DNA of 64,000 nucleotides, from positions 17,448 through 81,447 of the forward strand of contig PDRJ01000041.1 in the NCBI GenBank assembly GCA_002748065.1, in the 5' to 3' direction. This document shows positions 8,268-25,687 of the stretch, piece after piece. Below the pieces are notes generated by a model that saw nothing but the letters and a program-made list of their open reading frames with translations, did no database searches and had not been told where the DNA came from. This stretch comes from Bacteroidota bacterium (lineage in GTDB: Bacteria; Bacteroidota; Bacteroidia; Bacteroidales; BM520). The position numbers were made by a program, and so were the translations under genes. The stretch's first letter is position 1; each line of letters starts with the position of its first letter.

Positions 8268-10580
8268 TTAAAAAGAGAAGGAGAGGATAAGTTTTATGTT
8301 CCTTCCCATTGCAGGGATGTAAGAGCCGAAAGGACGATAATCATCATCCAACAGGTTCTCACACACCAACCTTAACTGGGGATGTCCGGGCAGCAAATGA
8401 GAACGCAACTCCAAGGAGGCATTAATCACAAAATGTGCTTCTGAGGGCACATAACCCCAAGGCCCCCCTCCTGTCCCTTCCGGAATCTCAGCCACACGTT
8501 TTTGGGGAGCCGCATACGCTGGGTTCAATCTCACCACATAGCCTGTTAACCACCGATAAGAAGTAGTTCCCTGATATCGAAGGTCAAGTTTCACCGTAAG
8601 CGGCGGCATTCCAAACAGTGGTTTTGACTGATCATCGGATAGTTCAACCCCATACACGTACGAGGCTCCTCCCCGAAGGGTAAGTACCTGGCCTCCCCCG
8701 AAAACACGGGGAATCCGGTAGGCTAAAGAGAGTTCTCCCCCGGTCAGTTGCGCATTGGTATTCTCCAACGTAAAATCCACATCAGGATCATCAGATGGAG
8801 CTTCATTGATAAAACCATCCAACAGATTATGGAAAAGGGCTAGATCAAACTTCATCCGATGATCCAGAGCCTGGCCACGGAGGCCCAGGTCAAAATTCCA
8901 GCCATACTCCGGGCTAAGAGCAGGATTTCCCTGTTTAACTCCCTTACAACTAACCACTTTCACATAGAGCTCCTCGGCAGTAGGCATCCGAAAAGCCCTC
9001 CCCGCATTCAGCGAGATACGAAAGCTCTCCTTAGGGGCATAGACCACCCCCACATTGCCACTAAGCGCCTCCCTGTTGGCTCGGCGTGCCTGCGAAAGTT
9101 CTCCTTCTCCCTCAATCACCCGGTAAAGATCATAGCGAAGCCCCGTTATTAGACGGACCCGATCAAAAGCACTCCACTCATCGCGCACAAAGGCACTCAG
9201 GTTATCCTGCCCCGTATTCTTAGAACCCTCCACATATCCATGAGTATCATTATAAAAATCAAATAGTTCCAATGGATTATCCAAACGGAAATAGTAGCCG
9301 TCAACGCCCGTTGTAAGGGTATGATTCTCCGAGGGGCGAATCTTGGTAAAGATCCGGGTTCCACCATAGTCATTTTTATAATGGTGAAGATTTAATGAAG
9401 AGACCCGACCACTTACGGCACTAAACTTATATTGATAGTAGTCGCGCCAGCCATCATCATAAAAAAAGTTTACCCGCACAAACTCCACTATCTTATTTTT
9501 GGGAGAGTAGGTATACGACATATCGGCATGAAAACTCTGCTCCTTATTACGAATCTTCGTAAAAAACTTTGTAGGGCCATTAAATCCCCTTGGCTTTCCC
9601 CAATCCCCATAGTGATAGGTAGCATTGAGAAGAACTTTATGTACTTCTGAGAATTTATAACCAGTATTCAAGGCCACATCCCGATCTTCCACATCGCTAT
9701 TCTTTGCTATCTCACCGCCACCATATCTCATGGCTCCCGTCTTCCGGTACTTCCCATTCAGGGAAAATCCAAACTTCTCCCGCTTATGACGGACTTTCAA
9801 TATCTCCAAAAACTCATTATTGTTGGATCCATAACCGGAGTGAATCTGCACCCTATTCTCATTACCATCAAAGGGTTCGTCACTAATCACATTAATAATC
9901 CCCGAGATAGCACCACTACCATAAATCACGGACCCGGGTCCTTTGATCACCTCAACCCTTTTGGTATCGTAAATATTCATATCCTGGCCAAAATAACCAC
10001 CAGGAAACGTACCAATACGACGGTTCCCATCCTTTAGGATCAACAACCGGTTGGAGTTAAGGCCCCGTAAGATAATGGGAGAGTGATATTCCCAAACTTG
10101 GGTAAAACCGGGAATATCCGCCAAAAGATCGGCCATATTTGAGCGCATCTGAGAGACAATCTCCCTGGGGGGAATCAAGTGAGCTGACCGCGTGAGGTTC
10201 TTCATGGGCTGCTCATAGAGGCTCGCAGAGATCACCACATCTGATAGCTCCATACTCACAGGCTTCAAATAGAAGGTCTGAGGAGTCAACAACGCCTCCC
10301 TATGGATAACCAGCTTTTGAGGCTCATACCCTAGATGACTAATCACCAAAGTGGAACCTTCATGATCACGGAGCGATAACTGAAACTTCCCCTCTTCATC
10401 GGTGGTTACTCCCCGGGCACTCCCCTCCTCCAACACATGTGCATAGGCCACAGGGGCGTGAGAAGAGGCATCCAACACCACTCCCCGGAAGAAAAGTGAC
10501 TCTCCTTGCGCAAAGCCCCCCAAAGAAGCCATAAAAAGAGCCATACCCAAAAGCATCATAGCAAAAACCCTATTCCTCAT
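8268..10580 (-). CDS. TonB-dependent receptor
   Basis: CarboxypepD_reg-like N-terminus, VVISAS TonB-box region, plug motif VEVIKGPGSVIYGSGAISGIINVI, terminal Phe. ATG 10580 gives a signal peptide. Confidence 0.9.
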   Translation of the reverse strand: MRNRVFAMMLLGMALFMASLGGFAQGESLFFRGVVLDASSHAPVAYAHVLEEGSARGVTTDEEGKFQLSLRDHEGSTLVISHLGYEPQKLVIHREALLTPQTFYLKPVSMELSDVVISASLYEQPMKNLTRSAHLIPPREIVSQMRSNMADLLADIPGFTQVWEYHSPIILRGLNSNRLLILKDGNRRIGTFPGGYFGQDMNIYDTKRVEVIKGPGSVIYGSGAISGIINVISDEPFDGNENRVQIHSGYGSNNNEFLEILKVRHKREKFGFSLNGKYRKTGAMRYGGGEIAKNSDVEDRDVALNTGYKFSEVHKVLLNATYHYGDWGKPRGFNGPTKFFTKIRNKEQSFHADMSYTYSPKNKIVEFVRVNFFYDDGWRDYYQYKFSAVSGRVSSLNLHHYKNDYGGTRIFTKIRPSENHTLTTGVDGYYFRLDNPLELFDFYNDTHGYVEGSKNTGQDNLSAFVRDEWSAFDRVRLITGLRYDLYRVIEGEGELSQARRANREALSGNVGVVYAPKESFRISLNAGRAFRMPTAEELYVKVVSCKGVKQGNPALSPEYGWNFDLGLRGQALDHRMKFDLALFHNLLDGFINEAPSDDPDVDFTLENTNAQLTGGELSLAYRIPRVFGGGQVLTLRGGASYVYGVELSDDQSKPLFGMPPLTVKLDLRYQGTTSYRWLTGYVVRLNPAYAAPQKRVAEIPEGTGGGPWGYVPSEAHFVINASLELRSHLLPGHPQLRLVCENLLDDDYRPFGSYIPAMGRNIKLILSFSF

Positions 10581-10605
10581 AGAAAAATCAATTTTAGAAG
10601 TCATC

Positions 10606-10700
10606 AAAAAAAGCAGTGGCGACAAAAAGATGTTGATGATCCGTTATTCAAGCAAAATAGATGAACAACTCCTCCACCGGGCTCCTTCTGCTGCCACTGC
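10606..10700 (-). promoter_or_regulatory. Long leader hairpin with U-tract (candidate attenuator/terminator)
   Basis: On the minus strand GCAGTGGCAGCAGAAGGA pairs with TCTTTTTGTCGCCACTGC, with an inner GTTGTTCA/TGAATAAC stem, then T7, ending about 25 nt before the receptor ATG. Confidence 0.5.
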
Positions 10701-10760
10701 AACAAGTGTCAAGCTCACACGACTCTCCTCTCTATGCGAGCACTACACAACGCTTAATTA

Positions 10761-10936
10761 GCGTCTGTCTATAAAGTCCGACTTCTTCGTTACGCTTCTC
10801 TTCCAAAGGGTTCTTTCGGCTTTGCTCAACACATCGCATTTACCTCAGTAAACTCCCCTATTTCAACCTTCGCAAGCCTCGAATTCAGACTTTCTATACA
10901 GCCGCTGCTCAAAACTCCGACTTTATGGAGAGAGAG
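10761..10936 (+). mobile_element. MITE copy A
   Basis: Ends GCGTCTGTCTATAAAGTC and GACTTTATGGAGAGAGAG; TAATTA on both flanks; homologous to the other copies. Confidence 0.8.
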
Positions 10937-10946
10937 TAATTATAAA

Positions 10947-11663
10947 CTAGTCCGCAAGGAAATCCCACTCAATGGCCACATACCCCCGGGGAGTAGGTGC
11001 CGGATTTGCCGGAAAGTCAGTCACAATAAATTTAACGATCTTACCTTCACGGGTCTTTATAATCCACACAGGTTCGTCGCCTTCAACATTGTTATTAGCA
11101 GGCACTTTCCATTTACAACCAATAACCAACTTGGCATACTCTTCCTTCAAAGCACTCATCAAGGGAGCCCCAGTGGTTCCGGTAGGCAGAGAGGAGAGGT
11201 CGAAATCAGCTGCATCCGATGCCAACAGATACTCCTGAATATTTTCCGCAGTAAGAGCTTCAAAAGCATCACGCCCCTTACAGGTCGTATCCACTTGCGA
11301 ATAATTTACCGCCTGAACGTCGTCGTGCAGACGAATAAAAGGAGCTCCCCCCATTTGTCCATTGGGTTTTTCCCCTTTTATGGTACGAATCTTAAGATCA
11401 TACGCAAAATCATCCATGTGCAAAGAATCCATATTGTTTGCACCACCCTTTTGATCCTTGTAAAGGAAATCAAAGCCTACGCCGCCGGGATTTCTACCGG
11501 CACAGATGAGGAAGGGAGACTCCACACCCAAAAACTCAACAGCCGGAGGAGTTGGCGGTGGTTTCGGCGGATCCACAGGTTTTTCTTCTTCACATGCTAC
11601 AAACAAGAAACTCATAACTCCTACTAACAGAAGGAGCAAGAAACCATTTTTTTTCACATTCAT
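10947..11663 (-). CDS. Surface lipoprotein, divergent HmuY-like
   Basis: Lipobox FVAC followed by an acidic EEEK export signal and Pro-rich linker. C-terminal VWIIKTREGKIVKFIVTDF...GYVAIEW resembles the HmuY C-terminus at 19761-20372. Confidence 0.6.
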   Translation of the reverse strand: MNVKKNGFLLLLLVGVMSFLFVACEEEKPVDPPKPPPTPPAVEFLGVESPFLICAGRNPGGVGFDFLYKDQKGGANNMDSLHMDDFAYDLKIRTIKGEKPNGQMGGAPFIRLHDDVQAVNYSQVDTTCKGRDAFEALTAENIQEYLLASDAADFDLSSLPTGTTGAPLMSALKEEYAKLVIGCKWKVPANNNVEGDEPVWIIKTREGKIVKFIVTDFPANPAPTPRGYVAIEWDFLAD

Positions 11664-11724: not shown

Positions 11725-11774
11725 ACCCCCACTAATAAGGATAACACACCCCCAAAACCCCTACAAATAGGGAT
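11725..11774. promoter_or_regulatory. Paired 18-bp operator boxes (32-bp spacing)
   Basis: ACCCCCACTAATAAGGAT (11725) and ACCCCTACAAATAGGGAT (11757); same motif and spacing as at 23199 and 24169. Confidence 0.65.
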
Positions 11775-11802
11775 AAATCACAAAGAGAAGAAAAGAGCTA
11801 TT

Positions 11803-12129
11803 CTAATCGGGGATATAGATAATTTCACCGTTCTCCAGCTGATATGCGGTACCTACCCTTTTCCCTTTATTTCCAGTGGTTTCCTTCTTATCCGATGCCT
11901 TATAGGACTCAATCTTCTCCCCTTTCTTGGTAATAATTTCCATCTGCTCGGTTCCCGGGTTTTTCACCATGGTAAAATCTTCCTTGGAGAAGATCTCATT
12001 CATGTTGTATCTCGAGACCAAAGCAACCATCAGGGCTACAGCGAAAACCATCGCCACATCAAACAGATTGGAAACCGTTGCCATCGGATCGATCTCTTCC
12101 TGATCAAAAAAGTGTCTTTTCCGTTTCAT
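11803..12129 (-). CDS. hmuV: DUF2149 family protein (HmuV)
   Basis: DPMATVSNLFDVAMVFAVAL and GTAYQLENGEIIYIPD motifs; last gene of an hmuSTUV-type block. Confidence 0.85.
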   Translation of the reverse strand: MKRKRHFFDQEEIDPMATVSNLFDVAMVFAVALMVALVSRYNMNEIFSKEDFTMVKNPGTEQMEIITKKGEKIESYKASDKKETTGNKGKRVGTAYQLENGEIIYIPD

Positions 12130-12130
12130 C

Positions 12131-12727
12131 TTATTGCTTTTGATCCATCAACAGTTCCACAATAAAATCCAGGTTATTGACATCAGCAGTGTACCAGCGA
12201 CGTTTTACTTGTGTAACCACAAACCCCACGGCACCACTCAACAATCCAATCACCGTAGTGGCAAAAGCCACCTGCATATTCATGGCCATAGAAGAGATAT
12301 CTCCAGAGGCTAAGCCCACCAAAGCCGGCCCCATGGGGATCAAGGTTCCCATCAAACCAAGAATGGGTCCCACCTTAGCCAGCGTCTGGCTCATAGAGAG
12401 ATCTTTCTGACAGGCAACCTCAAAATCACTTAACAGCTTCTCATAGTAGACCCGCTCAGACTTGGAGTCCCTCACTTTTCCAATAAACTCGGACAAAAGT
12501 AATTTCCCACCGGAGGGAAACTCCCCCAACACTTGCCGCACATTTTCCCTGCTCAACGTTGCGATACGGTCCCTAAACTTTTTATTAAACCGCATTTTAT
12601 GAATGTACATGCCGTAAAAAGTCCCAATTAAGATCAAGGATCGCAGAAAAAACAGAATCAACAAAATCAACACAGGGATCAGTAACCCCGTGGATATCCA
12701 GTACAAAATTTCACTAATCTGATTCAT
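12131..12727 (-). CDS. hmuU: MotA/TolQ/ExbB proton-channel family protein (HmuU)
   Basis: GPILGLMGTLIPM and VAFATTVIGL motifs; start at MNQISE. Confidence 0.87.
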   Translation of the reverse strand: MNQISEILYWISTGLLIPVLILLILFFLRSLILIGTFYGMYIHKMRFNKKFRDRIATLSRENVRQVLGEFPSGGKLLLSEFIGKVRDSKSERVYYEKLLSDFEVACQKDLSMSQTLAKVGPILGLMGTLIPMGPALVGLASGDISSMAMNMQVAFATTVIGLLSGAVGFVVTQVKRRWYTADVNNLDFIVELLMDQKQ

Positions 12728-13421
12728 ATACTCTTTTTTTATTTCTAATTCTACATTGATAGGGATAATATACCACCCCCGATAAGATGATAAGGAACGC
12801 CGCTGCAAAGAGAACCCCCAACTCCCTCCACGGCAAGGTGATCAACGCATAGCGAACGGGGAGACTAAAGGCCATCACCGAAACCACCACCGCGATCACC
12901 AACTGAAAGATATGGAGGATAAACTTGATCTCCAACCGCAAGTCTTCCACAGGGAGGAGCCACTTCATCAACCAGGAGAAGCCCCAAAGGGCAAGGGGGA
13001 TAAGGAATACCATCATCCAGGCGAGAAGGTTATAGCTTATGCCTCTTATCTCCAGAAAAAGGGATGACTGTAGATAGAAGAGGGAGAGAAACACCACGAC
13101 CCCGGGGAAATAAGAGGCATAAGCTAAGATCTTACGCTCCCGACTTCCATAATGAAGCCTGATGAAGAAGATACTAATAAGCAGTCCAAAGAACACCTCA
13201 AAGATCTGAATAACAAGGAAGTCACCTATAAAGGTCGCATCATTCAGCCGACTCATAATCTCCGTATTGCTTATCTCCAAAGCATACGGATAGAACAACC
13301 GCAAGGCTACGCCGGAGAGGAGGAGCCAAAAAAGGACAAATGCCTTCCTCTTCATAAAGGTAAACTGCAGTGAAAACAGGAGACCTGCCAATACCAGTAA
13401 AACGATGATTAATGAATGCAC
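12714..13421 (-). CDS. hmuT: Multi-pass membrane protein (HmuT-like)
   Basis: Highly hydrophobic; lies between hmuS and hmuU. Confidence 0.7.
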   Translation of the reverse strand: MHSLIIVLLVLAGLLFSLQFTFMKRKAFVLFWLLLSGVALRLFYPYALEISNTEIMSRLNDATFIGDFLVIQIFEVFFGLLISIFFIRLHYGSRERKILAYASYFPGVVVFLSLFYLQSSLFLEIRGISYNLLAWMMVFLIPLALWGFSWLMKWLLPVEDLRLEIKFILHIFQLVIAVVVSVMAFSLPVRYALITLPWRELGVLFAAAFLIILSGVVYYPYQCRIRNKKRVYESD

Positions 13422-13439
13422 AGCCTTTCCAAATTAAAT

Positions 13440-16400
13440 TTATCCTCTATTTCTTCTACGAATATAAAATACAAGAAGCAGCAAAATTCCTACCACCACC
13501 AACGCGGGGATCAAGGCATTACTCCTCTTCTTTACGCTTCGTTCCGGCTGCTCATCCGCACGATTCTCTTTCTCCAGCACCACCGACTCTTTATCCGAAA
13601 CACTCTTTTTCTCTCTCACCGAAGCGATCTCCGTCTCGTAAGCTTTTTGAAGTTCCGGGGTCAATTTCTGCTGGATATAACTCTTCAACTTTGCGTTATC
13701 ACACACAAAGCCACTACATCCTGCTTCATGCTCTTTGACCAGTTCTGCATGCAGGGTTGCCAGTTTGGCAATTTGCTCCTGAGAGGCCTTCCACATCCCC
13801 TTTCTTGCGGTCTCAAGCATCACCGCCGACATCTCCTGCATCGCATAAGGGTTCTCTCGCTTAAAGAAGTCCTGGACACCCAATTGCTGTTTATCTTCCA
13901 CATAGGTATCATACAGATCGTCCCACAGGCGATCCTCAATAACGGAAGGTTTCATCACATTCCATCCAAAGGTGTTTCTAAAGGTCTCTGCAAAGGTCTC
14001 CGCCGAGGAGGCTCCTCCCTTCATATACTCCTTGATATAGCGAGGGTTGAGCAGGGTGGTGCGGGTTTCGACCCAAACAGCCTCTTTCAAGCCCTGAACC
14101 CTTGCGTGAGAAGCATTGCGGAAATCATTAAAATAGGACTCCGCATCATTCCCGGTAACCTCTTTTACGGCCAGGTTCATCCCCCCCATAAACTCATACA
14201 CATGATCCAGGCTCAAGGCGCCCCATGTGTTACTCTGCCGGGGTTGAACCACCGCTTCGGTATTCAGCAAAGCCGCCCGGAAAACGCCATCCTCATATTC
14301 GCCCCAATCTTCAGCGTCGGAGTACCTTGCGCCCATATTTTGGATATAGGTCTTAGCCACCATACGGGAGGAGTCCCAACGGCCGGAGTTCTCCACCATA
14401 CCCATAATACCGGTTCCATAGTTCCCATTAACGCCGCCAAAGATGCGTTGGGAGGAGAGTTTTCGTGCATCCTTGGGTGAGAAGCCGGCATCCACCAACT
14501 GTTGTTCCGCATCGCGCACCCCTTTCTTCACAAAGTTCTCTTCATCGCCCCCCTCCATGGCCACCTTTTGAATGGCTCTATTAATGAGGAAAAGGCGAGA
14601 AGCTGCCAGATCACGCAACTGTCCGGAGGTCTGAACCAGTACATCAATACGCGGCCGCTTCAACTCCTCCAAAGGAATCATTCGCACATCATAAACCCGA
14701 CCAAAGGCATTCCATATGGGCTCCACCCCAAGCAGGTAGAGAATCTGAGCGATGGTAGCACCCTCCGACTCAATAAAACTACTTGACCATAGGGTAAAAC
14801 TAATCTTCTCCGGATATTGACCATCATGCTTCGAGCGATAGTCTTCCAACAAACTTTCGCCCAACTTCTTTCCAACCCTCCAGGCCTCCGGTGTAGGAGT
14901 CTGCTCCGCATCAATGGAATAGAGGTTCCTTCCGGTGGGAAGGGATGCTGGGTTTGCAATGGGATCACCTCCCGGACTGGGAGAGGTATACCCCCCTTCC
15001 AGAGAGTTCAAGATAGCCACAAACTCCTCTTCCGGACTCTCCCGAAGCGCTTTCTGCTTTTTCAACACATCTTCAAGTGCATGTTTCACCATCTGAACCG
15101 CACGCGAGAAGTCCTCTTCCAGCGTTTCAAGTCGAGCAATCTCTCTTCCAGCTGCCTCCATAAGGGGAGCCAGTTGGGTATCCATAAAAGCCACTAATGC
15201 CTGCTCCTCTTTGGAAGGAGAAGCTATCTTTCCAAGGATCGCATGCAGCTCGTCTTTATGCTTCTCCAGGTAATTCAAGGCCGTATTTTTCCCACGGAGG
15301 TCCTCCAGAGAGAGGAGAAGACACTCTTCCACGGAAAAATCAGCTACCTCTTCCTCAAAATAGAGAAGAGCCTGCAAGCGAATCGCCTCTTCCTGACGAC
15401 GCTCCTCAGCCTCCACATCTTTCATAAGTCCCTCGTCATGGAGATAATGTAGCGCAAGGTTACGCATGGAAGTGTCTTCGACCATCTCTATAATAGAGAA
15501 GACAATACTATCGGTGGCCACCTCTAAAGCCTTCGCCATGGGAGGCACCACCTTTGCCAGGTTCTTCACCTTACGAAACTTCTCCTTATCCAACAGAGCA
15601 ATGGCCTTTTCGTAAGATTTATCCGACTCCAGTGTCATCAAGAAAGACTTCTTCTCCTCATCCGGTAAGCAACGGATAATCAATCCCCGGAGTTTCAAGC
15701 TATCCTCCCGGGACAAACCTGTATGCTCTTCGTGCGAGGCTTTAGCCCCCATCATACCCATGGTGGCCATAGGCATTGCCATAAAATCTTTCTTCTGATC
15801 CTCCCAACGTTGTGCCCGTGCACGATCTTCCGAAGAGACGATCCGTTGAAAGACAGCAAGCGGATTCTTCGTACGCAACACCTCTCCAAGATACCTTTCG
15901 GAAGGATGAGTATACCTGTCGTTAAAGAATTTCTTATCCTCGATCCGTTCTCTATCTATTTTTTTCTTAAGCACATCCAGCTCCGCCAGATTATAGGCAA
16001 TGGCATCCACCAACATCAGCTGAACGGTCTCCTCCAACTTATCCTTGGGATAGGGTACTCCCATGGTGTAGAGGCCACCGGTCACCTTCTCATGCTCTAT
16101 CTCCTCTAAGTAGTTGGCCAACTTCATCATATCCGCCTCAGAGTAGGGCTGATCCAGGATACTGTCAAGCCCCAGGTCCAAATGAATTTTCGCCTTCACA
16201 GCCATCGCTTTTATGGAGAGGGCATACTCATTCTTCACCGCACCCTTGGCCTGCTCATATTTATGCAATTTGGTATGCATAATCTCACGGTTAGAAAAAG
16301 CCTGAGCCTCAATAAAGGGAGGGGTAAGATAGGTTTGTGTAACGGCATAACTTCTACGTTTGGCGATCATCCCCTCACCCACATTGCTGATGGTATAGAT

Positions 16401-18131
16401 GTAAAAATGGGGGGTGGTTCCAATGAGAGGATCGGTCCAGTCGTACTGGGAGAGTGCAATCTGTTTTCCGGGGGTAAACTCCAGGGAGCCATGGGTTCCA
16501 AAGTGGAAAATGGCATCGGCTTGAAACCCTTGCTGAATCCAGAAGTAGGGCGCAATATAAGCGTGGGGCGGAGCCGTCTTAGCGCCGTGCACCAGGGCAA
16601 ATTGGTTCTCTCCGATCCCGGGGAGAGGCTGTGGCAAAAGCACCACATTCCCAAAAGCGACGCGTGCCACGGCCAGGTACTCCGTTGAATCCTTATAAAC
16701 GGACATAAAACTTCCCGGAGCTTTTCCATATCGATTGACCACCTCCTCATACATGGAAGATGGCAACAAATCCTCGCACCACTGCTCATAGGTCACCGCC
16801 TCAATAAGCTCAGGTGAACCCTCCTTCAGAAACGTATCAAAAGCGCCCTCTGCGTAAGGCCCCAATACCGGCCCCATACGCATAACCACCTCTTCAAAAG
16901 CCTCATATGTCTCCGGAAGTCCTTCCACATTATAACCTTCCCGCTTCATGCGCTTCAACAGGTTGTACAGAGAAGGTAGGACCTCCATGTTGGAAGCCTC
17001 CAGGGCATTTTTTCCCGGGCCCTTGAAATAGACAATAGCCACCTTCTTATCGTGGTTATGAAGTTCTTTCAGGTTCAAATAATTGGAGACAATTTCGCCA
17101 AACTTCTCCAGACGCTCAGGAACAGCCTGAAAGACCAGAAGCCCCTGTTCCGTTTTATACTGAGCGAAAACGGCATAGGGCACAATCCCTCCGTCAAACT
17201 CAGGCATGGTCACACTCTGGCTCAAAAGGCCACCAAACATCCCCTGTTTATCCTTTAACCACTTCTCATACTCACTAAATACGCTTACAGGGCATAACAC
17301 AGGAACATCCTGCTCCTCCAACCAATCGATCACAGCCTTGGTATCCCCACTCATATCCAAACGACCATGGGGAAGGTATACAATAAGATCGGGTTGTATC
17401 GTTTGCATCTGTCTCAAACGACTTTGCCACCCCGCCACAGGATAGACATTCAGGTTCCGTGATTCCAATTCGACAATTAGGCTGTCAATATGCTCCCTAT
17501 TGGCGTTAAAAGGTCCCGGAACACTGGTAAAAAGCAACACCCGACGGTTCTTTTTTTGGTGGACTCCCGTCTTTAGAGCCCACTGTTGAAACTCCTCCAC
17601 CGTATTGAAAATGGCATCCTCTCCCAGATAAAAGAGCACATCGGAGTTGATCTTACGGGGCGGACTGACACTATCTGCGCTACCCCGCTTACCATCAAGT
17701 TCGTAACGGATATATTTAAACATATTCCGATAGTTAAAACGCCCCCCATTCTCCAGGTAACCGGAGATATTATCCAACTGATGTCCAGCGATATTCGTTA
17801 ACTGTAACGCTGGATTTGTCGCCGCATACATAAAGATATCAGCACCCTTCTCTCCCGCACGAACAATCTTCTCTTTCTGATCTTCGGGCAGTTCTAAACC
17901 CATACCAAAGACAAAAAGCGCATCATACTTCCTCAGTGAGGGGAGGGAACGCGGATAAAGTTTGTCGATTTTCACGGCCTTCTCTTCGTTAGCCGTTACG
18001 ATCTTCGCATACATAAAATCGGGAAAATTGATAAGACCTACCCGAGTTGGCGCATAATGTTTGTGGTAATAAAATCCCACAAATACCACCACAACGAAGA
18101 GAGTCAATCCTACAACTATTTTTTTCCGCAT
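13440..18131 (-). CDS. hmuS: CobN/chelatase-family protein HmuS (heme de-chelatase type)
   Basis: HFGTHGSLEFTPGK, LPTGRNLY and SLDHVYEFMGG motifs; N- and C-terminal TM anchors; hmu operon context. Confidence 0.9.
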   Translation of the reverse strand: MRKKIVVGLTLFVVVVFVGFYYHKHYAPTRVGLINFPDFMYAKIVTANEEKAVKIDKLYPRSLPSLRKYDALFVFGMGLELPEDQKEKIVRAGEKGADIFMYAATNPALQLTNIAGHQLDNISGYLENGGRFNYRNMFKYIRYELDGKRGSADSVSPPRKINSDVLFYLGEDAIFNTVEEFQQWALKTGVHQKKNRRVLLFTSVPGPFNANREHIDSLIVELESRNLNVYPVAGWQSRLRQMQTIQPDLIVYLPHGRLDMSGDTKAVIDWLEEQDVPVLCPVSVFSEYEKWLKDKQGMFGGLLSQSVTMPEFDGGIVPYAVFAQYKTEQGLLVFQAVPERLEKFGEIVSNYLNLKELHNHDKKVAIVYFKGPGKNALEASNMEVLPSLYNLLKRMKREGYNVEGLPETYEAFEEVVMRMGPVLGPYAEGAFDTFLKEGSPELIEAVTYEQWCEDLLPSSMYEEVVNRYGKAPGSFMSVYKDSTEYLAVARVAFGNVVLLPQPLPGIGENQFALVHGAKTAPPHAYIAPYFWIQQGFQADAIFHFGTHGSLEFTPGKQIALSQYDWTDPLIGTTPHFYIYTISNVGEGMIAKRRSYAVTQTYLTPPFIEAQAFSNREIMHTKLHKYEQAKGAVKNEYALSIKAMAVKAKIHLDLGLDSILDQPYSEADMMKLANYLEEIEHEKVTGGLYTMGVPYPKDKLEETVQLMLVDAIAYNLAELDVLKKKIDRERIEDKKFFNDRYTHPSERYLGEVLRTKNPLAVFQRIVSSEDRARAQRWEDQKKDFMAMPMATMGMMGAKASHEEHTGLSREDSLKLRGLIIRCLPDEEKKSFLMTLESDKSYEKAIALLDKEKFRKVKNLAKVVPPMAKALEVATDSIVFSIIEMVEDTSMRNLALHYLHDEGLMKDVEAEERRQEEAIRLQALLYFEEEVADFSVEECLLLSLEDLRGKNTALNYLEKHKDELHAILGKIASPSKEEQALVAFMDTQLAPLMEAAGREIARLETLEEDFSRAVQMVKHALEDVLKKQKALRESPEEEFVAILNSLEGGYTSPSPGGDPIANPASLPTGRNLYSIDAEQTPTPEAWRVGKKLGESLLEDYRSKHDGQYPEKISFTLWSSSFIESEGATIAQILYLLGVEPIWNAFGRVYDVRMIPLEELKRPRIDVLVQTSGQLRDLAASRLFLINRAIQKVAMEGGDEENFVKKGVRDAEQQLVDAGFSPKDARKLSSQRIFGGVNGNYGTGIMGMVENSGRWDSSRMVAKTYIQNMGARYSDAEDWGEYEDGVFRAALLNTEAVVQPRQSNTWGALSLDHVYEFMGGMNLAVKEVTGNDAESYFNDFRNASHARVQGLKEAVWVETRTTLLNPRYIKEYMKGGASSAETFAETFRNTFGWNVMKPSVIEDRLWDDLYDTYVEDKQQLGVQDFFKRENPYAMQEMSAVMLETARKGMWKASQEQIAKLATLHAELVKEHEAGCSGFVCDNAKLKSYIQQKLTPELQKAYETEIASVREKKSVSDKESVVLEKENRADEQPERSVKKRSNALIPALVVVGILLLLVFYIRRRNRG

Positions 18132-18135
18132 ACTA

Positions 18136-19674
18136 CTATTTCCTTTTCAATTTAACATACCAATAATCAAACACACCGGAAAGTATGACAAAAAGCCCCA
18201 TACTTCCCAAAAGAGGAATTATCAGGATATACAATGCTCCCAACAATCCCTTAAAGATTCGAGCATTGTGAAGCTCGAACAAAAAATTCCACAAAGGCAT
18301 CCTGTAAGCACGCGACAAGGATTCCGGCATGATCAATTGACCATATATCGGCTCACCGGAGGCATCACACAACCCTTTATAATGGCCGCAAATGTACTGA
18401 CAATTATCCTCATATTCAACGAAACCGGTCACAAGTAGCGAAGCCGGCATTCCCTTATGTTTTGGAGGTGACACATGAAGGAGAGACTGTTTATGCTCCT
18501 CTCTTACATCGTAGAGCAGCAACCCTCCAAAGGAGCCTACCAGCCACTCTCCTGGCACCTTTTCTTCAAAAACAGTCGTTCCCATGGCAAAAATGGAGAA
18601 GGGAAGCTCCAATTTCTTAAAAACAGCCATTTCACTCACCGCTCCAGCCCAGATTCCATCGGAACACTCCAGCACCAAACGATGAGCATCATGATCGTAC
18701 AACGCATTGTTAATTTTCTCGTGCCAGGGATTCCGGGAAAAAGAGGGGAGCCATCGTTGGCTCACAGAACCATCGGCAATGGCAAGAATCAACGGAGGGC
18801 GAAGAAAAATCCCGGTGGCAAATATGACCGTAAGGAGTACGGCCACATACCATCCCCATTTCTTATGATAACGAAGGAAGAAGGCGTACCGCTTTTTCTC
18901 TTTTCTCCCGGGTTTCACGCCCCCTTTTTTGTAGCCCCTTCGCCACCTCTTTGGGTAGAACCAAATGTAGAATGCCGAAACGGCAAGAAACAGCAGGATA
19001 AGGCCTGCCAAATCCCACAAAAGTTTTCCCGCCCCTCCCAAAATGGAGCCGTCATGCAGCGATAAGAAAAACCGAAACAGCGGCAGACGTAGGTTCTCCT
19101 CGTCCCTATGGGGAATTACAAGGGAAAATTGCTCTTCCGAAGAGAGTGGCTTTTGGTAAATGGCCGACTCGGTCACCACCAGGTAATGGCCATCCCCCGT
19201 TACAATCTTTTTCACCGCGGAGCGATTCTCCGGCAGGGGAATCGCAACCCACTGCTTCGTATCGCAATCCACTTGAAAGAGTCCACCGTTGGTAGCAGCC
19301 CACACCAATCCGCTGGAGGAGTCAGCCAGCAGGTGGTTGGTTCTTCTTTTCCAGGCAGCATCAGGAAAATCCCCCTCCATAAACGGCTCAAAATGAAGCC
19401 CATTATCCTTGGAAAGAAAAACGCCCTGATTTCCCCAAACCATCAACTTACGAGAATCGAAACGAAGCATCCCCTTCAAGGAACTCCGATTCCAATTGAC
19501 AGGATGGTAATGCTTCGGCACCCACCTTCCAGGAATAGAGAGGTCACGGATCAATCCCGGATGGTTGAGCAATATACCGGAAACAGCCATCCATCCCACA
19601 AAGAGGATTAGGAGCAACCCCGGATACTTATGATACCACTTGCTTAATCGAAAAAACCGTTTCCCTATACCCAT
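18136..19674 (-). CDS. PepSY-associated TM-helix protein (putative heme-b ferric reductase type)
   Basis: WYHKYPGL...SGILLNH, LSLHDG, RYHKKWG and ELHNAR helices carrying His residues; duplicated architecture. Confidence 0.8.
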   Translation of the reverse strand: MGIGKRFFRLSKWYHKYPGLLLILFVGWMAVSGILLNHPGLIRDLSIPGRWVPKHYHPVNWNRSSLKGMLRFDSRKLMVWGNQGVFLSKDNGLHFEPFMEGDFPDAAWKRRTNHLLADSSSGLVWAATNGGLFQVDCDTKQWVAIPLPENRSAVKKIVTGDGHYLVVTESAIYQKPLSSEEQFSLVIPHRDEENLRLPLFRFFLSLHDGSILGGAGKLLWDLAGLILLFLAVSAFYIWFYPKRWRRGYKKGGVKPGRKEKKRYAFFLRYHKKWGWYVAVLLTVIFATGIFLRPPLILAIADGSVSQRWLPSFSRNPWHEKINNALYDHDAHRLVLECSDGIWAGAVSEMAVFKKLELPFSIFAMGTTVFEEKVPGEWLVGSFGGLLLYDVREEHKQSLLHVSPPKHKGMPASLLVTGFVEYEDNCQYICGHYKGLCDASGEPIYGQLIMPESLSRAYRMPLWNFLFELHNARIFKGLLGALYILIIPLLGSMGLFVILSGVFDYWYVKLKRK

Positions 19675-19675
19675 A

Positions 19676-19718
19676 AAAATATAAAAGCGGGACGGGTATT
19701 ATTTACCTACCCATCCCG
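19676..19718 (-). terminator. Intra-operon hairpin/terminator after hmuY
   Basis: Minus-strand CGGGATGGGTA...TACCCGTCCCG followed by CTTTTATATTTTT. Confidence 0.6.
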
Positions 19719-19760
19719 AATAAACTAAAACCAGTTTCTAATCAAACACAAAAGTGTCTA

Positions 19761-20372
19761 TTAGTCCAATTTTGTAGAACCATCTGGTTGATAACTGTAC
19801 TTCATGGTTACATGTCCACTTTCGCCATCGGCATTAAAGTAATCTTTCAGCCATACCTTCGCGTATTTACCGTCGGCTGTTTTCACCACAAAGATTTCGT
19901 TGCTGTAGGTATACTCAGGACCCTGCTGGCCATAGGTCATCGTCACCCAAGTAGCCAGGACCTGGTCACCGGGTACATGTTCCATCACCGGAGGCATCAC
20001 CGTAACATCAACAGCTACATCAATAAAGTCGTTCGAGACATAACCGCTCTCAGGAGCCGTAGTAACTGCTGCGAAATTGTTCTCACCAGTAGCAAAAGTC
20101 CCCCCTTCGCCAGGGCCTGCTTCTCCTCCATTTACACGCAAATCGTAACGATGGAATCCGATATCCCATGCCGTAGAAGTAGCAAAATCAGCTACCTCAA
20201 CCACTTCACCCTCTTTGAAGCTGAAATAGACCCAAGCGTCGTATGCCGTAGCATCAATAGTGATGGTATTAACGGATACAGGATCTTTAGGTTTATCCTT
20301 ATCTTTACAAGAGGTAAAAACTAAACCAATGCCTAAAACGGCAAGAAGTGTCAAAAAATGAATTTTTCTCAT
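19761..20372 (-). CDS. hmuY: HmuY-family hemophore-like lipoprotein
   Basis: Lipobox FTSC; IDATAYDAWVYFSF, WDIGFHRYDLRVNGG and FVVKTADGKYAKV motifs. Confidence 0.92.
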   Translation of the reverse strand: MRKIHFLTLLAVLGIGLVFTSCKDKDKPKDPVSVNTITIDATAYDAWVYFSFKEGEVVEVADFATSTAWDIGFHRYDLRVNGGEAGPGEGGTFATGENNFAAVTTAPESGYVSNDFIDVAVDVTVMPPVMEHVPGDQVLATWVTMTYGQQGPEYTYSNEIFVVKTADGKYAKVWLKDYFNADGESGHVTMKYSYQPDGSTKLD

Positions 20373-20396
20373 AACAAATTAGTGTTTATTTCTTAA

Positions 20397-22727
20397 TTAA
20401 AAGTTATACGTGAATGATACAAAGAAACGTCTTCCCACACTGGCCGTCGTATTCATCGTCACAGTGGGAGCCGTATAGTTCAAGAGGTTTCTCACCCCAA
20501 GCCCCAACATATAATGTTTTCCATACCGCTGGTTTACCGTTAGATTAAAAATAGCATACGCAGGATAACGCGCTTCGTACACTTTGCCATACAAAGGACT
20601 CTCTTCGATCATGTTCGTTCCCTTAACAACTTTTGTACTCAAAAGTTTTCCCGAAAGGTTTGCAGTCAAGTGATACTTATTCTTCTCATACAAAAATTCC
20701 AACTGAGCGGTAAGCGCATGAGGGCTTATATCCGAAAGGGCTACCACATCACGGTCTTTTATGTGATGCGAATAGACATAGCCCGCCTTCAAGTTAAACA
20801 GCGTATGAAGACGCCATTTCAGCATCGCCTCAAGGTTCACCACCTTCACCTTACTAATGTTAATGTAGTTAACCATAGAGTCATTCACCCAAATCCCCTC
20901 AATCTTATGATCAATCTGATTATACGAACCGATTAAGGTGGCATTCAGTTGGTGATCCAGGTTCAGGTAATCCAATGACACGCTGCAATAGTTGTTTGTC
21001 TCCGGCTTCAAGTCTGTACTTCCCACTATCTGGAACATGCCCAAATGGCTCCAGTTCATATAGAGCTCCTTAAGGGTAGGCGAACGATAGCCCCTGGCGT
21101 AATTCAAGCGCAGATTAAACGGTTTTAAACGATACCTCAGCGTGATGGAGGGAGAAGCATGAAAGGCAAAGGTGGAGTGATAACCTCCTCGCACACCAAT
21201 GACGGCGGAGATATCGTCAGAAATCGTATACTCATCTTGTGCCACAAAAACCAAGTCGTTGGTCGACTTTGATTGAATCTCACTGGCATCCCAAACAAAC
21301 ATATCCGCCGAAAGGATCTCATATAAATTCTCTATTCCCACAAACAGGTTATGTTTTGCCCCCAAGCGAGTGGTATAATTCAACTTTGCATTATGAAAGG
21401 TATTACGGTAATAGCGTACGGCGGTATCGTTTTTCCGTTCTTTCACATCATACTTATCAAAGATATCCGTGTTATAAGAGAGTTGAATATTGTCATTGGC
21501 CGACATGCGGTACTTCGCAAAACCACCAATAGAGTAGTTTTTAAACATATCATGCTGCCAGTTGTAAACCCGGGTCAAAAACTCTTCATGGCGATAGTGA
21601 TTACCTCGTAATTCAAAGGCCCATCTCTTCCCATCATCATAACCAATTTTCTGTGTAATGGTATAATCCTGAGAGCCATTAATTGCCGTTTCATGCAACT
21701 CTTCCACTAAGGTCGTATCCAATTCAGGGTAGTAAAACCTCATTCCCTCACGATCAGATAGGACATATCCATCGGTACTCTTGGCATTCAGGAAGGTATT
21801 ACTATAGAAGTTTCTATTACGAAACCCCAGGGAGAGGTTCCCATTCAGGTTAGGTTTATCCATATTCCGATAAAACTTATCCTCATAGTCCTCGTAGTAG
21901 GTATCATCAGGAAAATAGTTCTTCTGGTTTCTTTGTCGATATTTTACATTAGCAGAAATATCAAACTTATGGCGGGGCTTTCGCGTAATAATATTGATTA
22001 CACCGCCCATGGCATTGGAACCGTAAAGAGCCGAGCTTGCCCCACGCACAATCTCCACCCGTTCGATGTTTGCCGCATTAATACGCGAATAGTCAATATT
22101 CCCTCCTGTCTCGCCGGCCAGTCGTTCCCCATCCACCAGAATTAAGGTATATTGAGGCTCCAGCCCCTGCACACTCATGGTCTGCCCAAAGCCATGCCGA
22201 GCCAACTCAATCCCCGGAACTTCCGTTTCAAGAATATCTGTAATGGTAGCTGCATCGGCTCGTGCAATCTCTTTTTGTGCAATCATCTGCGTAAGCACCG
22301 GAGCTTCCTTCAAAATGTGAGGAGTTCTTGTGCCGGTAACTGTAACCTGTTCCAAATTCAATACATCCTCCTCCATGAAAAACGTATGCCCCTGCTCCAC
22401 ACGCAAGGTATCATTCACCACCTTGAAACCGATGGAACTAATGTGAATAATCAGGTCACTTCCCGGAGTTACCCCCATCTGAAACTTCCCTTTCTCATCA
22501 GAAATACCATTCCCGCTGGAGCTATTATCCAACGTTTGCCAACAGATGTTGGCATAGGGTACAGAAGCCCCACTCTCCTTCTGAAGAAGGGATATGACTG
22601 TTGACTGTCCATAAATCCAAAAGGAAGAAAAAAGCAACACCCCCACAAGAAAGAGCCTATGAGTGTTACTTACTATGCTATTTATACCTCTGTTCATCTT
22701 TTTTATCATCTTTTTTCTTTTTCTCAC
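20397..22727 (-). CDS. hmuR: TonB-dependent heme receptor HmuR-like
   Basis: VTVTGTRT, IERVEIVRGASSALYGSNAMGGVINII, YRSPTLKELYMNWSHLGMF and DLKPE motifs; adjacent to hmuY. The true start may be ATG 22709 or 22697. Confidence 0.85.
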   Translation of the reverse strand: MRKRKKMIKKMNRGINSIVSNTHRLFLVGVLLFSSFWIYGQSTVISLLQKESGASVPYANICWQTLDNSSSGNGISDEKGKFQMGVTPGSDLIIHISSIGFKVVNDTLRVEQGHTFFMEEDVLNLEQVTVTGTRTPHILKEAPVLTQMIAQKEIARADAATITDILETEVPGIELARHGFGQTMSVQGLEPQYTLILVDGERLAGETGGNIDYSRINAANIERVEIVRGASSALYGSNAMGGVINIITRKPRHKFDISANVKYRQRNQKNYFPDDTYYEDYEDKFYRNMDKPNLNGNLSLGFRNRNFYSNTFLNAKSTDGYVLSDREGMRFYYPELDTTLVEELHETAINGSQDYTITQKIGYDDGKRWAFELRGNHYRHEEFLTRVYNWQHDMFKNYSIGGFAKYRMSANDNIQLSYNTDIFDKYDVKERKNDTAVRYYRNTFHNAKLNYTTRLGAKHNLFVGIENLYEILSADMFVWDASEIQSKSTNDLVFVAQDEYTISDDISAVIGVRGGYHSTFAFHASPSITLRYRLKPFNLRLNYARGYRSPTLKELYMNWSHLGMFQIVGSTDLKPETNNYCSVSLDYLNLDHQLNATLIGSYNQIDHKIEGIWVNDSMVNYINISKVKVVNLEAMLKWRLHTLFNLKAGYVYSHHIKDRDVVALSDISPHALTAQLEFLYEKNKYHLTANLSGKLLSTKVVKGTNMIEESPLYGKVYEARYPAYAIFNLTVNQRYGKHYMLGLGVRNLLNYTAPTVTMNTTASVGRRFFVSFTYNF

Positions 22728-22781
22728 TATACCCTGGAAGCTACAAAGAGAAACACCTCTACGGTTTTATACCAACGGGGA

Positions 22782-23117
22782 TTAATTCAAGGTAAGTTTA
22801 TCAATCAGTACATGTGTCGGCACCTCACTACTCCCAGCTTTAAATGAAAGGAGCTCCTTCAACTCTAGAAACTCGGCAGGAGTCACCGCAAAATAAACCC
22901 CCTCTTCTCCTAGATGCAGCAGCAGTTTCCGGCGATTCACCGCATCACGGTTTCTATGAATATAAAATTCATAATCAATAGAATGGACATACTCAGAGAA
23001 GCGACGCATCTCCTCCTCCGACATATTCAGAAAAAGATTACCAAACTCCAGGCTGACCCTCTTTTTACAGGGACAAGAAAAGATCTGGCCATTTTGCGTC
23101 CTACTCAATATCTTCAT
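22782..23117 (-). CDS. Small conserved protein (DUF6686-like)
   Basis: NGQIFSCPCKKRVSLEFGNLFL pattern; first gene of the hmu transcription unit. Confidence 0.6.
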   Translation of the reverse strand: MKILSRTQNGQIFSCPCKKRVSLEFGNLFLNMSEEEMRRFSEYVHSIDYEFYIHRNRDAVNRRKLLLHLGEEGVYFAVTPAEFLELKELLSFKAGSSEVPTHVLIDKLTLN

Positions 23118-23198
23118 TCTTTTTTTTCAACGATCAACTCTGCTCACCACAAAGCCGAATTTGCGGTGCAAAGGAAAGGAGAGGGATACAGATCCACA

Positions 23199-23248
23199 AT
23201 ACCCATTTGTGGTGATTTTGGGAAACCCATATCACAACAAGGAGTGAG
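23199..23248. promoter_or_regulatory. Paired 18-bp operator boxes upstream of the hmu operon
   Basis: ATACCCATTTGTGGTGAT (23199) and ATCACAACAAGGAGTGAG (23231); 26 nt from a minus-strand TTTG -7 element at 23169-23172. Confidence 0.65.
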
Positions 23249-23282
23249 AAGAATAATTTATCCCCACTCCTTGTCGCTACAC

Positions 23283-23993
23283 TTACTCTCCCTTCATCTT
23301 ATAAAAGGTCTGTACATCAGCATTCTTCTCCCCAAACTTTTCCCTAAGTTTTTCAATAATTTCCCCACGGTCTACCCCTTTCTCCTCCATCTTTTTCACG
23401 AGAAGATAGGCGCCAAAGAGCGCTGAAGAGCCTATCTCTGAAGCAAAATAACCCACTCCTTGATTCCACGCAAACAGGGCAAAAATTTCATCGAAAGCCT
23501 CTATGGGAACACCTATAGAATAGGCCTTCACAAACTCACGTACCGCCTGACGCATTCTCCCGGCACCTACTCCATTGGCAAGCGATAGGAGTAAACGGGT
23601 CTTCATATCCAACACATTATCTTCACGGCCCCAGATATACGTCCAAAAGTTAACCACGTTGGAGGCCAAACGGGGATCAATGGTGTTGAAATTCACAATA
23701 GCGGTAGGCTTAAAAGGCAATGCCCCTTCATCAGCTTCAGCGGCCTCCGGCACACTACTTTTATAGAAGTAAACCCTATATTCCACCTCAGAGACCACCT
23801 CCAGAGAGTGCTCAAAGCCCAACTCCGCCATGGCTCCGTACAGTGGAACCGGTTCAAAACTTTGTACAATACAGATTCCCGTATGAAGCGGCATCTTTTT
23901 TGCCTTCTGTAAGATAGACGGGAGAAAGTTACCCTTTAACGATCGCACATCCCGTACTTCAAAATCTTCTTTGCTTATGTTCCAGTTTTTCAT
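23283..23993 (-). CDS. DUF2249 domain fused to an AhpD/carboxymuconolactone-decarboxylase-like domain
   Basis: DVRSL...SFEPVPLYGAMAELGFEH...YRVYFYK N-domain; LDMKTRLLLSLANGVGA helical C-domain. Confidence 0.6.
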   Translation of the reverse strand: MKNWNISKEDFEVRDVRSLKGNFLPSILQKAKKMPLHTGICIVQSFEPVPLYGAMAELGFEHSLEVVSEVEYRVYFYKSSVPEAAEADEGALPFKPTAIVNFNTIDPRLASNVVNFWTYIWGREDNVLDMKTRLLLSLANGVGAGRMRQAVREFVKAYSIGVPIEAFDEIFALFAWNQGVGYFASEIGSSALFGAYLLVKKMEEKGVDRGEIIEKLREKFGEKNADVQTFYKMKGE

Positions 23994-24062
23994 AATAGAT
24001 CATGCTTTTAATAAAACGATTCATTTGGTTTTGCAATCATACACAACATGGTTGACACCAAG

Positions 24063-24078
24063 TGTAACCAATGTTACA
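24063..24078. promoter_or_regulatory. GTAAC-N4-GTTAC palindrome (HcpR-type Crp/Fnr site)
   Basis: TGTAAC-CAAT-GTTACA perfect inverted repeat 70 nt upstream of the DUF2249 gene. Confidence 0.6.
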
Positions 24079-24168
24079 AGCGCAAAAAACGCGAACCATC
24101 AGGAAACAGAGAAAACCCATATAACAAACTAATTAACAGCAAATTAACAGAGATTACAAGATAAAAAA

Positions 24169-24218
24169 ATCACCACAAATAGGGATAACCAGCCAAAAAT
24201 ATCCTCATTTCTAACGAT
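24169..24218. promoter_or_regulatory. Paired 18-bp operator boxes upstream of flavodoxin
   Basis: ATCACCACAAATAGGGAT (24169) and ATCCTCATTTCTAACGAT (24201); 26 nt before TTTG at 24245. Confidence 0.65.
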
Positions 24219-24275
24219 TGTTCCCCTTCGCCTGACACAGGATATTTGCCATCAGAATAAAAACTAATCAGAGAT

Positions 24276-24785
24276 ATGAAAAAAGTTGGAATTTTTTACG
24301 GATCTACCACCGGTAACACACAAGGTGTAGCGGAGCAAATCCAAGCCATATTTGGAGAAGACAATGCTGATATCATGGAGGTTTCAGGCGCGAAAAGTGC
24401 AGACCTTGAAGGGTACGAAAACCTTATATTAGGGTGTAGTACCTGGGGTATTGGAGATATGCAAGATGACTTTGATGACTTCTTGCCGGAGCTTCAAGGG
24501 GCAAACCTCGAGGGCAAAAAGGTAGCGCTCTTCGGTTGTGGTGATCAGGAATCTTACGCAGACTCTTTCGTTGATGCCATGGGGGAGATCTACGCTACAG
24601 TGAAGGATAAGGGATGTCAACTGGTAGGTAGTGTACCCACAGAAGGATATGAGTATGATGAGTCTCGTGCAGTAGTAGATGGTAACTTTGTAGGTCTTCC
24701 CATTGACGAAGATAATCAGAGTGATCTCTCTAGTTCAAGAATTAACCAATGGGTTGGTGATCTGAAAAACAATTTTGGTTTATAA
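24276..24785 (+). CDS. fldA: Long-chain flavodoxin
   Basis: FYGSTTGNT, GCSTWGIG, FGCGDQESYADSFVDA and FVGLPIDEDNQ motifs. Confidence 0.95.
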   Translation: MKKVGIFYGSTTGNTQGVAEQIQAIFGEDNADIMEVSGAKSADLEGYENLILGCSTWGIGDMQDDFDDFLPELQGANLEGKKVALFGCGDQESYADSFVDAMGEIYATVKDKGCQLVGSVPTEGYEYDESRAVVDGNFVGLPIDEDNQSDLSSSRINQWVGDLKNNFGL

Positions 24786-24990
24786 ATCCCCTCCCATTAT
24801 TTAATAAAGAAAAACCTTGCTTTACTACATCTCCTTATTTTTGAATCGTTCATTACATTACAGCAAGGTGGTTTTTACCCATTATTGAATCAAAATAGCG
24901 GCAGGAGCATCCAACCTTATTTGTTTCTGCCGCTTATTTTCAATGGGTTTATAGAGAAATATACGTATCGTGATCCAAGAAGTATTGAAG

Positions 24991-25368
24991 ATGAAGGGAG
25001 ACAAAAAATTGCGTCCTGAGATCAACTGCAGTGACTACAAAAGTGCAGAAATGCAGGTGTTGCTTCACCACATTTATGAGTACAAAAAGGGATTACGAAG
25101 TTTGGTCTTGCATACCATGAGTAAAGAGGAGCAATACAAAATGGAGGAGTTGCTCACACGCAAAAAGATCCCTTATGTGCTTCAAGTGGTCAATGACAAA
25201 AAGGTTAACGTCTTCTTTGGAAAACAGGAATGCATCAAAATTGTAGAGGGATTTGGAGATAAGTCGTTGAGTGATTTTTCCGATGAAGAAGATTTTATGC
25301 TCGGAATTATGCTAGGTTATGACCGAACACAACAGTGTGAAAGATATCTAAAGAGAAAGTTTACGTAA
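24991..25368 (+). CDS. DUF2023 family protein
   Basis: HHIYEYKKGLR and EEDFMLGIMLGYD...QCERYL motifs; usual neighbour of flavodoxin in anaerobes. Confidence 0.85.
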   Translation: MKGDKKLRPEINCSDYKSAEMQVLLHHIYEYKKGLRSLVLHTMSKEEQYKMEELLTRKKIPYVLQVVNDKKVNVFFGKQECIKIVEGFGDKSLSDFSDEEDFMLGIMLGYDRTQQCERYLKRKFT

Positions 25369-25482: not shown

Positions 25483-25555
25483 AGCGGAAGACGGGACTCG
25501 GACCCGCGACCCCAACCTTGGCAAGGTTGTGCTCTACCAACTGAGCTACTTCCGC
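25483..25555 (-). tRNA. tRNA-Gly(GCC)
   Basis: Cloverleaf GCGGAAG...CTTCCGC-T; anticodon loop TTGCCAA. Confidence 0.95.
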
Positions 25556-25560
25556 AAGCG

Positions 25561-25645: not shown

Positions 25646-25687
25646 AGACCTTTTAAAAAAAAGCCTCCTATAAACGGAGGCCCTCTG

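Follow-up and report, generated by a model that had tools for sequence, protein, structure and literature searches.

A window of 64,000 nucleotides from a Bacteroidota bacterium genome (GenBank assembly GCA_002748065.1, contig PDRJ01000041.1, positions 17,448 to 81,447; numbered here from the first letter of the window) carries a heme/iron island with paired copies of an 18-base-pair (bp) box at its three promoters. The box appears to be a real operator, spread through the order Bacteroidales and most likely belonging to a CdhR-type activator with a di-iron sensor partner. We consider it probable that the boxes are the binding site of the LuxR-family, CdhR-type regulator encoded at 7651-8232, which would activate iron-uptake promoters upon a starvation signal from the di-iron protein encoded at 6906-7598. 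An earlier sequence-only reading of the window had likewise regarded the boxes as the activator site of this LuxR protein; this has indirect support from the constant distance to the -7 element, from co-occurrence with the regulator pair and not with Fur, and from the CdhR target set, although the acting unit is likely two proteins and not the LuxR protein by itself.

The box has the consensus ATMCCYAY-WW-RTRGGKAT, an 18-bp palindrome in the form of a 7-2-7 inverted repeat (consensus of 124 sites). All six 18-mers were verified at 11725/11757, 23199/23231 and 24169/24201, with 32 bp within every pair, and the coordinates and spacings given for the three promoters by the sequence-only reading proved exact. 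At the hmu promoter (minus strand), the proximal box (23199..23216; 20.9 bits) stops 26 nucleotides (nt) short of the TTTG in the -7 element (23169..23172), and a weak distal box (23231..23248; 2.1 bits) lies 32 bp upstream. The proximal flavodoxin box (24201..24218, plus strand; 6.2 bits) ends at the same distance, also as described earlier, from the TTTG of the fldA -7 element (24245..24248, plus strand), and its distal partner (24169..24186, plus strand) is the strongest box of the window with 22.2 bits. The third pair belongs to the minus-strand promoter of a lipoprotein and a second TonB-dependent receptor (proximal 11725..11742, 12.0 bits; distal 11757..11774, 32 bp upstream, 16.4 bits). 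Its -7 element is degenerate: ATTA is found at 26 nt, and the canonical element is absent there. In the orthologous promoter of a genome of the same genus (G004), whose proteins at this locus are 64-67% identical, the 32-bp pair is kept with a different spacer, and TTTG stands exactly 26 nt off.

Genome-wide scans singled out the same three pairs. An external matrix made from 124 sites, none of them from the window (123 from other genomes and one from contig C24 of this genome), placed the window pairs at ranks 1, 2 and 3 with 28.4, 28.3 and 23.0 bits, the fourth pair scoring 4.1 bits. With leave-one-pair-out matrices, every held-out pair came third among 2,325,559 genome positions, after the two training pairs only. 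When spacings from 18 to 59 were scanned with a matrix of the six boxes, strong pairs appeared at 32 bp alone and were the three window pairs; since these are the only 32-bp pairs in the genome, random scatter or a repeat family was ruled out. Other high-scoring single boxes, such as C41:15495, C33:15260 and window position 18852, were not counted, as they lie in open reading frames (ORFs) or lack the -7 geometry. A structured-RNA interpretation of the boxes was also dropped: in window positions 5000-26000, Rfam recognized three transfer RNAs (tRNAs) and no structured RNA at the boxes.

Searching 151 genomes of the order with the box and a fixed spacer gave 126 matches in 76 genomes, as opposed to 12 with the reversed control. 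Beyond the order, 8 of the 26 genomes from the class and 7 of the 91 from other classes had the pattern (controls, 3 and 2 matches, respectively). Sites C24:53539 and 23199 of this genome were left out, and the remaining 124 were examined. At positions not imposed by the pattern, AAA precedes the box, T (91%) and G (69%) directly follow it, and the TA of the housekeeping element TAnnTTTG downstream is conserved as T 77% and A 76%. The last T of the box opens a TTG (box positions 18-20) that lies 20 nt before TAnnTTTG, at the expected -33 position. The TG after the box and the TA of TAnnTTTG indicate that a housekeeping promoter has its -33 position right next to the box. In a free-spacer search of 41 genomes over 20-32 nt (215 matches, 65 of them beyond those listed, and seven from this genome dropped), a spacer of exactly 26 was found in 38 of the 103 listed matches from 19 hemerythrin-positive genomes vs. 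4 of the 40 from 8 negative ones. Hence the position is fixed against the upstream promoter element with a peak at 26 nt, as is characteristic of a promoter-adjacent activator, and the site's placement beside the -33 element points to activation.

The 32-bp pair, which the sequence-only reading had taken as the defining feature, did not keep this status. A second box of at least 6 bits occurs 31, 32 or 33 bp upstream at 3, 8 and 1 of 123 sites elsewhere, i.e., at 12 in total, vs. 8 matches over the other 99 offsets, and contig C24 of this genome has single boxes at 43646 and 53539 with the same 26-nt geometry. The tandem is therefore real and recurrent but optional, and it was dropped as the defining unit. 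With a box-plus-promoter matrix from the 123 foreign sites, the top four positions in the genome were C24:53539, C24:43646, 23199 and 24201, and 11725 came 25th of 28.

A downstream ORF is present at 110 of the 124 sites. By Pfam (E 1e-8), these first genes include 20 TonB receptors, 16 FeoAB/FeoB, five hemerythrin partners, five OprB porins, four flavodoxins, four DUF2249/DUF1858, three TetR, three PepSY-TM, two DUF2023, two Trep_Strep and two enolases, together with single cases of CobN, MMPL, ATP-binding cassette (ABC) proteins, a lyase, an aldolase and others; 25 had no family. The five hemerythrin partners represent predicted autoregulation. In this genome, the top sites precede hmu, TetR/MMPL and the lipoprotein with its TonB receptor, which is the CdhR-type target set, and the C24 boxes precede a methyltransferase/ABC cluster and TetR-MMPL-LolA-like genes. 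The earlier proposal of a regulon of hmu, the second receptor pair and flavodoxin would thus hold for its members and not as a limit, since the two C24 loci would belong to it too. Overall, the predicted target set matches the low-iron stimulon of Porphyromonas gingivalis, Prevotella intermedia and Bacteroides thetaiotaomicron, comprising hmu, fldA-DUF2023, TetR/MMPL/ABC, an S-adenosylmethionine (SAM)-methyltransferase locus and the hemerythrin-regulator pair (PMC10434189).

Several box-following loci deserve separate mention. The two single C24 boxes head a second iron-type island (L228, G000:C24:42500-61500) with five SAM-methyltransferase genes, a PEMT-family gene, two ABC transporters, TetR, MMPL, LolA-like and DUF1302 genes and a cation efflux protein. 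Two families without a Pfam match at E 1e-8 stand directly after the box and are candidate iron-uptake components: secreted proteins of about 400 amino acids (L100, L114, L141, L144, L146, L182, L192) and membrane proteins of about 120 amino acids with an H-x-H motif (L127, L132, L140, L154, L177, L180, L197). Boxes before enolase (twice), a class II fumarase-like lyase and a class I aldolase (L125, L130, L137, L189) suggest an iron- or metal-sparing metabolic arm. A single box can also be flanked by two divergent TTTG elements, as at G110:C17 (26/26) and G023:C367 (26/29).

The presumed reader of the box (7651..8232, plus strand) is a NarL/VraR-type protein of the CdhR/BT0520 type, with a degenerate receiver and a GerE-type helix-turn-helix (HTH) domain (PF00196, E 2.4e-17), and over its full length its profile can be aligned with VraR (E 3e-21). 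The window protein gave no Response_reg match in Pfam. Its phospho-acceptor position is Asn58 (Asn in 18 and Asp in 4 of 25 orthologues), and its acidic pocket reads E-P-S, unlike that of a phosphorylatable receiver. By these features it would be a NarL-type-like activator and a non-canonical response regulator. It shares with NarL, NarP and VraR the receiver-like domain, the GerE HTH and, in its presumed operator, the 7-2-7 inverted repeat. However, it differs from them in the Asn phospho-acceptor, the E-P-S pocket, its own recognition helix (S-x-H-T-V-x-[TS]-H-R-[KR]-N) and a neighbor that is a di-iron protein and not a kinase. Among the 124 sites, the NarL heptamer TACYYMT fits the left half-site in 19 and the right one in 11. 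Among the four GerE matches of the genome, the window regulator is the only cytoplasmic NarL-type HTH found; the others are a 335-amino-acid, N-terminally hydrophobic protein whose helix differs, and two ORFs resembling sigma factors.

The recognition helix is tied to the palindrome in a second context. In G032 and G015, two genomes lacking the hemerythrin-LuxR pair, receiver-LuxR paralogues with nearly the same helix, S-x-H-T-V-N-T-H-R-K-N-I, are found next to near-identical boxes before sulfur-assimilation genes. The boxes have the form ATACCT-N6-AGGTAT (L220:3361 and 10416 in G032:C1; L221:1583 and 1606 in G015:C590) and precede cysK, sulfite reductase, ThiF and Cys/Met lyase genes, and the paralogue has an intact-looking Asp. 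This is a candidate regulon for sulfur assimilation that would rely on the same DNA code.

The gene directly upstream of the regulator, with which it converges on the island, encodes the presumed sensor partner (6906..7598, plus strand), a ScdA/YtfE-like, hemerythrin-domain protein of the PG1236/BT0519 type. In 25 partner sequences H88, H132, E136, H167, H211 and E215 are invariant, so that the His/Glu ligand set of a di-iron site is present. Like the RIC proteins ScdA and YtfE, it keeps the His/Glu motifs, and the partner profile can be aligned with ScdA from end to end (E 1.5e-11), the first His being shifted by one residue. In contrast to them, it scores 49.8 bits in the RIC family, far below the NCBIfam cut-off of 204.7, the N-terminal FCCGG motif is replaced, and a transcription factor is coupled to it or fused with it. 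This coupling suggests sensing rather than repair. Nine hemerythrin-HTH fusions without a receiver domain were found in 8 genomes (both Pfam domains checked for one), and a fused hemerythrin-regulator form is known in P. intermedia (PMC10434189). In some of the fusions (L210-L213) the di-iron domain is shortened or partly degenerate, which may have changed or removed metal sensing.

The distribution of the motif among the genomes follows this pair. The partner alignment splits the 151 genomes into those with E below 1e-40 and those above 1e-33, and the LuxR gene adjoins the partner. With 96 genomes below 1e-40 and G055, which has two fusions, counted as pair-positive, the motif was present in 66 of 97 pair-positive vs. 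10 of 54 pair-negative genomes (p = 4e-9). Two or more sites occur in 31 genomes, every one of which carries the pair. As the pattern was tuned on G000-G040, the 124 later genomes served as a held-out test: the motif occurred in 51 of 78 pair-positive and 7 of 46 negative genomes (p = 4e-8; Fur, p = 0.43).

The most familiar alternative is a Bacteroidota Fur site, where Fur would act as a repressor over the -33 region or apo-Fur as an activator. Indeed, the targets form the classical Fur-type gene set, the box overlaps the -33 position, feoAB of Bacteroides fragilis is reported to be Fur-dependent (see below), and the genome encodes one Fur, beside an ORF which we take to be purA-like. Fur regulons have the same output of iron and heme uptake and flavodoxin replacing ferredoxin. 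However, a Fur orthologue was found in 111 of the 151 genomes (one protein query at E 1e-30, whereby the Fur-negative class may hide divergent orthologues), and the motif was unassociated with it, both overall (54 of 111 with Fur, 22 of 40 without; p = 0.58) and among pair-positive genomes (46 of 68 with, 20 of 29 without). Among Fur-positive genomes the pair still predicted the motif (46 of 68 with the pair, 8 of 43 without; p = 6e-7). Moreover, the 18-bp 7-2-7 repeat is unlike the 19-bp Fur box, and a base-exact distance to the -7 element would be surprising for a repressor. Altogether, a Fur site is quite improbable.

Several observations weigh against the assignment of the box to the CdhR-type pair. 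Kinship among the genomes, though most come from different families, inflates all the co-occurrence p-values given above. The strict pattern has no match in 31 of the 97 pair-positive genomes, and 10 of the 54 pair-negative genomes carry a site. Two of the latter, G048 and G064 (assemblies about 92% complete), have the box before feoAB-containing operons; in G064 the partner gave no match even at E 0.001, and when five pair-negative, motif-positive genomes were searched for the partner with greater sensitivity, none turned up. In the genome studied here, no box precedes the regulator's own operon or feoAB. FeoAB is the second commonest target, and in B. fragilis it is reported to be classically Fur-dependent (PMC5552952, PMC6460266), although heme dechelation is independent of Fur according to the same group. 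Boutrin et al. were unable to verify recombinant CdhR's binding to the hmuY promoter, which Wu 2009 is said to report (PMC11018363), and another regulator, HaeR, shifts the hmuY and hmuS regions of P. gingivalis (PMC3764172). Finally, the predicted complex of partner and regulator gives the pair weak support: its score was 0.49 vs. 0.24 for the best control, with contacts agreeing by at least 97% across runs and a partner predicted local distance difference test value of at least 80. Of 157 solved pairs, 116 attain the complex-score mark, as do 2 of 215 mismatched ones, but scores up to 0.60 include 18 solved pairs and both passing mismatched ones, and without a prior a prediction in this range is more often wrong than right.

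The site in ten pair-negative genomes and the HaeR shifts could also mean that some other regulator co-occurring with the pair reads the box, be it a TetR of the regulon, where TetR genes are indeed found, an extracytoplasmic function (ECF) sigma factor or a HaeR-type response regulator. We regard this as very improbable. The element downstream of the box is the housekeeping TAnnTTTG and no ECF promoter. TetR is itself a target, and the P. gingivalis TetR locus depends on CdhR (PMC11018363), while the accessible portion of PMC3764172 contains no HaeR consensus. Moreover, the G032/G015 paralogues with the CdhR recognition helix stand next to boxes of this kind that belong to another regulon.

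The CdhR-type assignment is consistent with genetics in P. gingivalis. As the sequence-only reading had stated, CdhR controls hmu there: deletion of cdhR lowers hmu, PG1178-81 (TetR/MMPL), PG0495 and PG1019, and deletion of PG1236 lowers hmuY, PG1181 and PG1019, with cdhR apparently still expressed (PMC11018363). In the proposed mechanism, a GerE-type HTH dimer would sit on the 7-2-7 repeat beside RNA polymerase and recruit it (class II activation), and the distance to the -7 element would be invariable because the dimer recruits the adjoining polymerase. As the receiver mostly has Asn at the phospho-acceptor position, the regulator would be switched by the partner and not by a kinase. The partner would act positively, as proposed from the fall of the targets in the PG1236 deletion despite continued cdhR expression, and most simply in an iron-free or NO (nitric oxide)-damaged state; the induction at low iron suggests that activity lies with the iron-free form. 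At a minority of promoters, a second dimer 32 bp (three helical turns) upstream on the same face would strengthen the response, and all three island promoters are predicted to be among these.

It is less certain what the partner senses. The LuxR protein might read the box while the input is not iron: the partner may sense NO or O2 or merely stabilize the regulator, with iron control exerted elsewhere, e.g., by Fur or heme on the expression of the pair. The homology of the partner to the RIC proteins and the weak complex prediction would fit this, and the P. gingivalis pair is NO-induced, with larger mutant effects under NO (PMC11018363). However, the targets belong to iron uptake and sparing and not to NO detoxification, in three species iron depletion is by itself enough to induce the pair and its targets (PMC10434189), and the fusions put the di-iron domain directly on the HTH. 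A non-iron input thus appears unlikely, and we retain iron starvation as the probable signal of the CdhR-type pair.

A wider interpretation, for which we see even chances, is that the iron-starvation master switch in much of the Bacteroidales is not Fur but a repurposed RIC-like di-iron protein that directly activates a kinase-less NarL-type regulator, which in turn reads the 18-bp palindrome at its base-exact position. It would turn on heme, ferrous-iron and TonB uptake, flavodoxin, iron-sparing enzymes and often the regulator itself. If true, the gating of a pseudo-receiver activator by a RIC-like di-iron protein would be a way of sensing iron unlike that of Fur, DtxR, IscR, RirA or Irr. Compared to Fur regulons, the logic would be reversed: the predicted activator has a fixed position, another motif and no co-occurrence with the Fur orthologue. 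It is also a candidate explanation for the induction of iron uptake without the Fur repressor. In B. fragilis, iron regulates heme dechelation without Fur (PMC6460266). Of the iron-induced genes in gut and oral Bacteroidota, those of the hmu operon, fldA-DUF2023 and TetR/MMPL rank with the strongest, and they are also induced in colitis (PMC10434189); now that the operator is precise, its geometry fixed and a sensor proposed, their regulon becomes predictable from sequence.

The regulator pair, its fusion and most of the targets are already published. Both CdhR (PG1237)/PG1236 of P. gingivalis and BT0519-BT0520 of B. thetaiotaomicron consist of a hemerythrin gene followed by a LuxR-family gene, with fused forms known (PMC11018363, PMC10434189), and the same targets recur, namely hmu, TetR/MMPL, a lipoprotein with a TonB receptor, fldA-DUF2023 and SAM-methyltransferase loci. 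The likeness to CdhR rests on this gene architecture and target set. The literature consulted gives no binding sequence for CdhR, and Boutrin et al. guess at half-palindromes (PMC11018363), as opposed to the full palindrome, 26-nt geometry, 32-bp tandem and order-wide regulon described here. No literature defining the operator, its geometry or the order-wide regulon was found in a search that did not extend to figures, supplements, subscription journals and RegPrecise, and Wu 2009 or Olczak 2024 could map the site.

As for the other genes of the island, the hmu operon (11803..23117, minus strand) was assigned by Pfam and ORFs and comprises a DUF6686 gene, a TonB receptor (HmuR-like), HmuY, PepSY-TM, a CobN-like HmuS, a membrane protein, MotA/ExbB and DUF2149. 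Under the 11725 promoter lie the lipoprotein and the second TonB-dependent receptor (8268..11663, minus strand), the best NCBIfam matches of the receptor being heme/hemoglobin receptor models, below cut-off. The lipoprotein (10947-11663, 238 amino acids) has no Pfam or NCBIfam family and is kept at 67% in G004; it is possibly a HmuY-like ligand-binding partner of the receptor. The 24201 promoter serves flavodoxin FldA and the DUF2023 gene (24276..25368, plus strand). Past these, three tRNA genes (25483-25760) form one edge of the island.

Divergent from fldA is a DUF2249-like gene (23283..23993, minus strand; weak Pfam match, E 3e-4), a possible further target; elsewhere, the first gene after the box is a DUF2249/DUF1858 gene 4 times out of 110. 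On the minus strand, a TTTG (24140-24143) that faces this gene comes 25 nt after the end of the distal flavodoxin box, which may thus serve both directions. Directly 3' of the same gene, a hairpin of -26.7 kcal/mol (23225-23290, minus strand) is likely a terminator insulating the hmu promoter. The distal hmu box at 23231 falls in the 3' arm of this hairpin, and its sequence may double as terminator.

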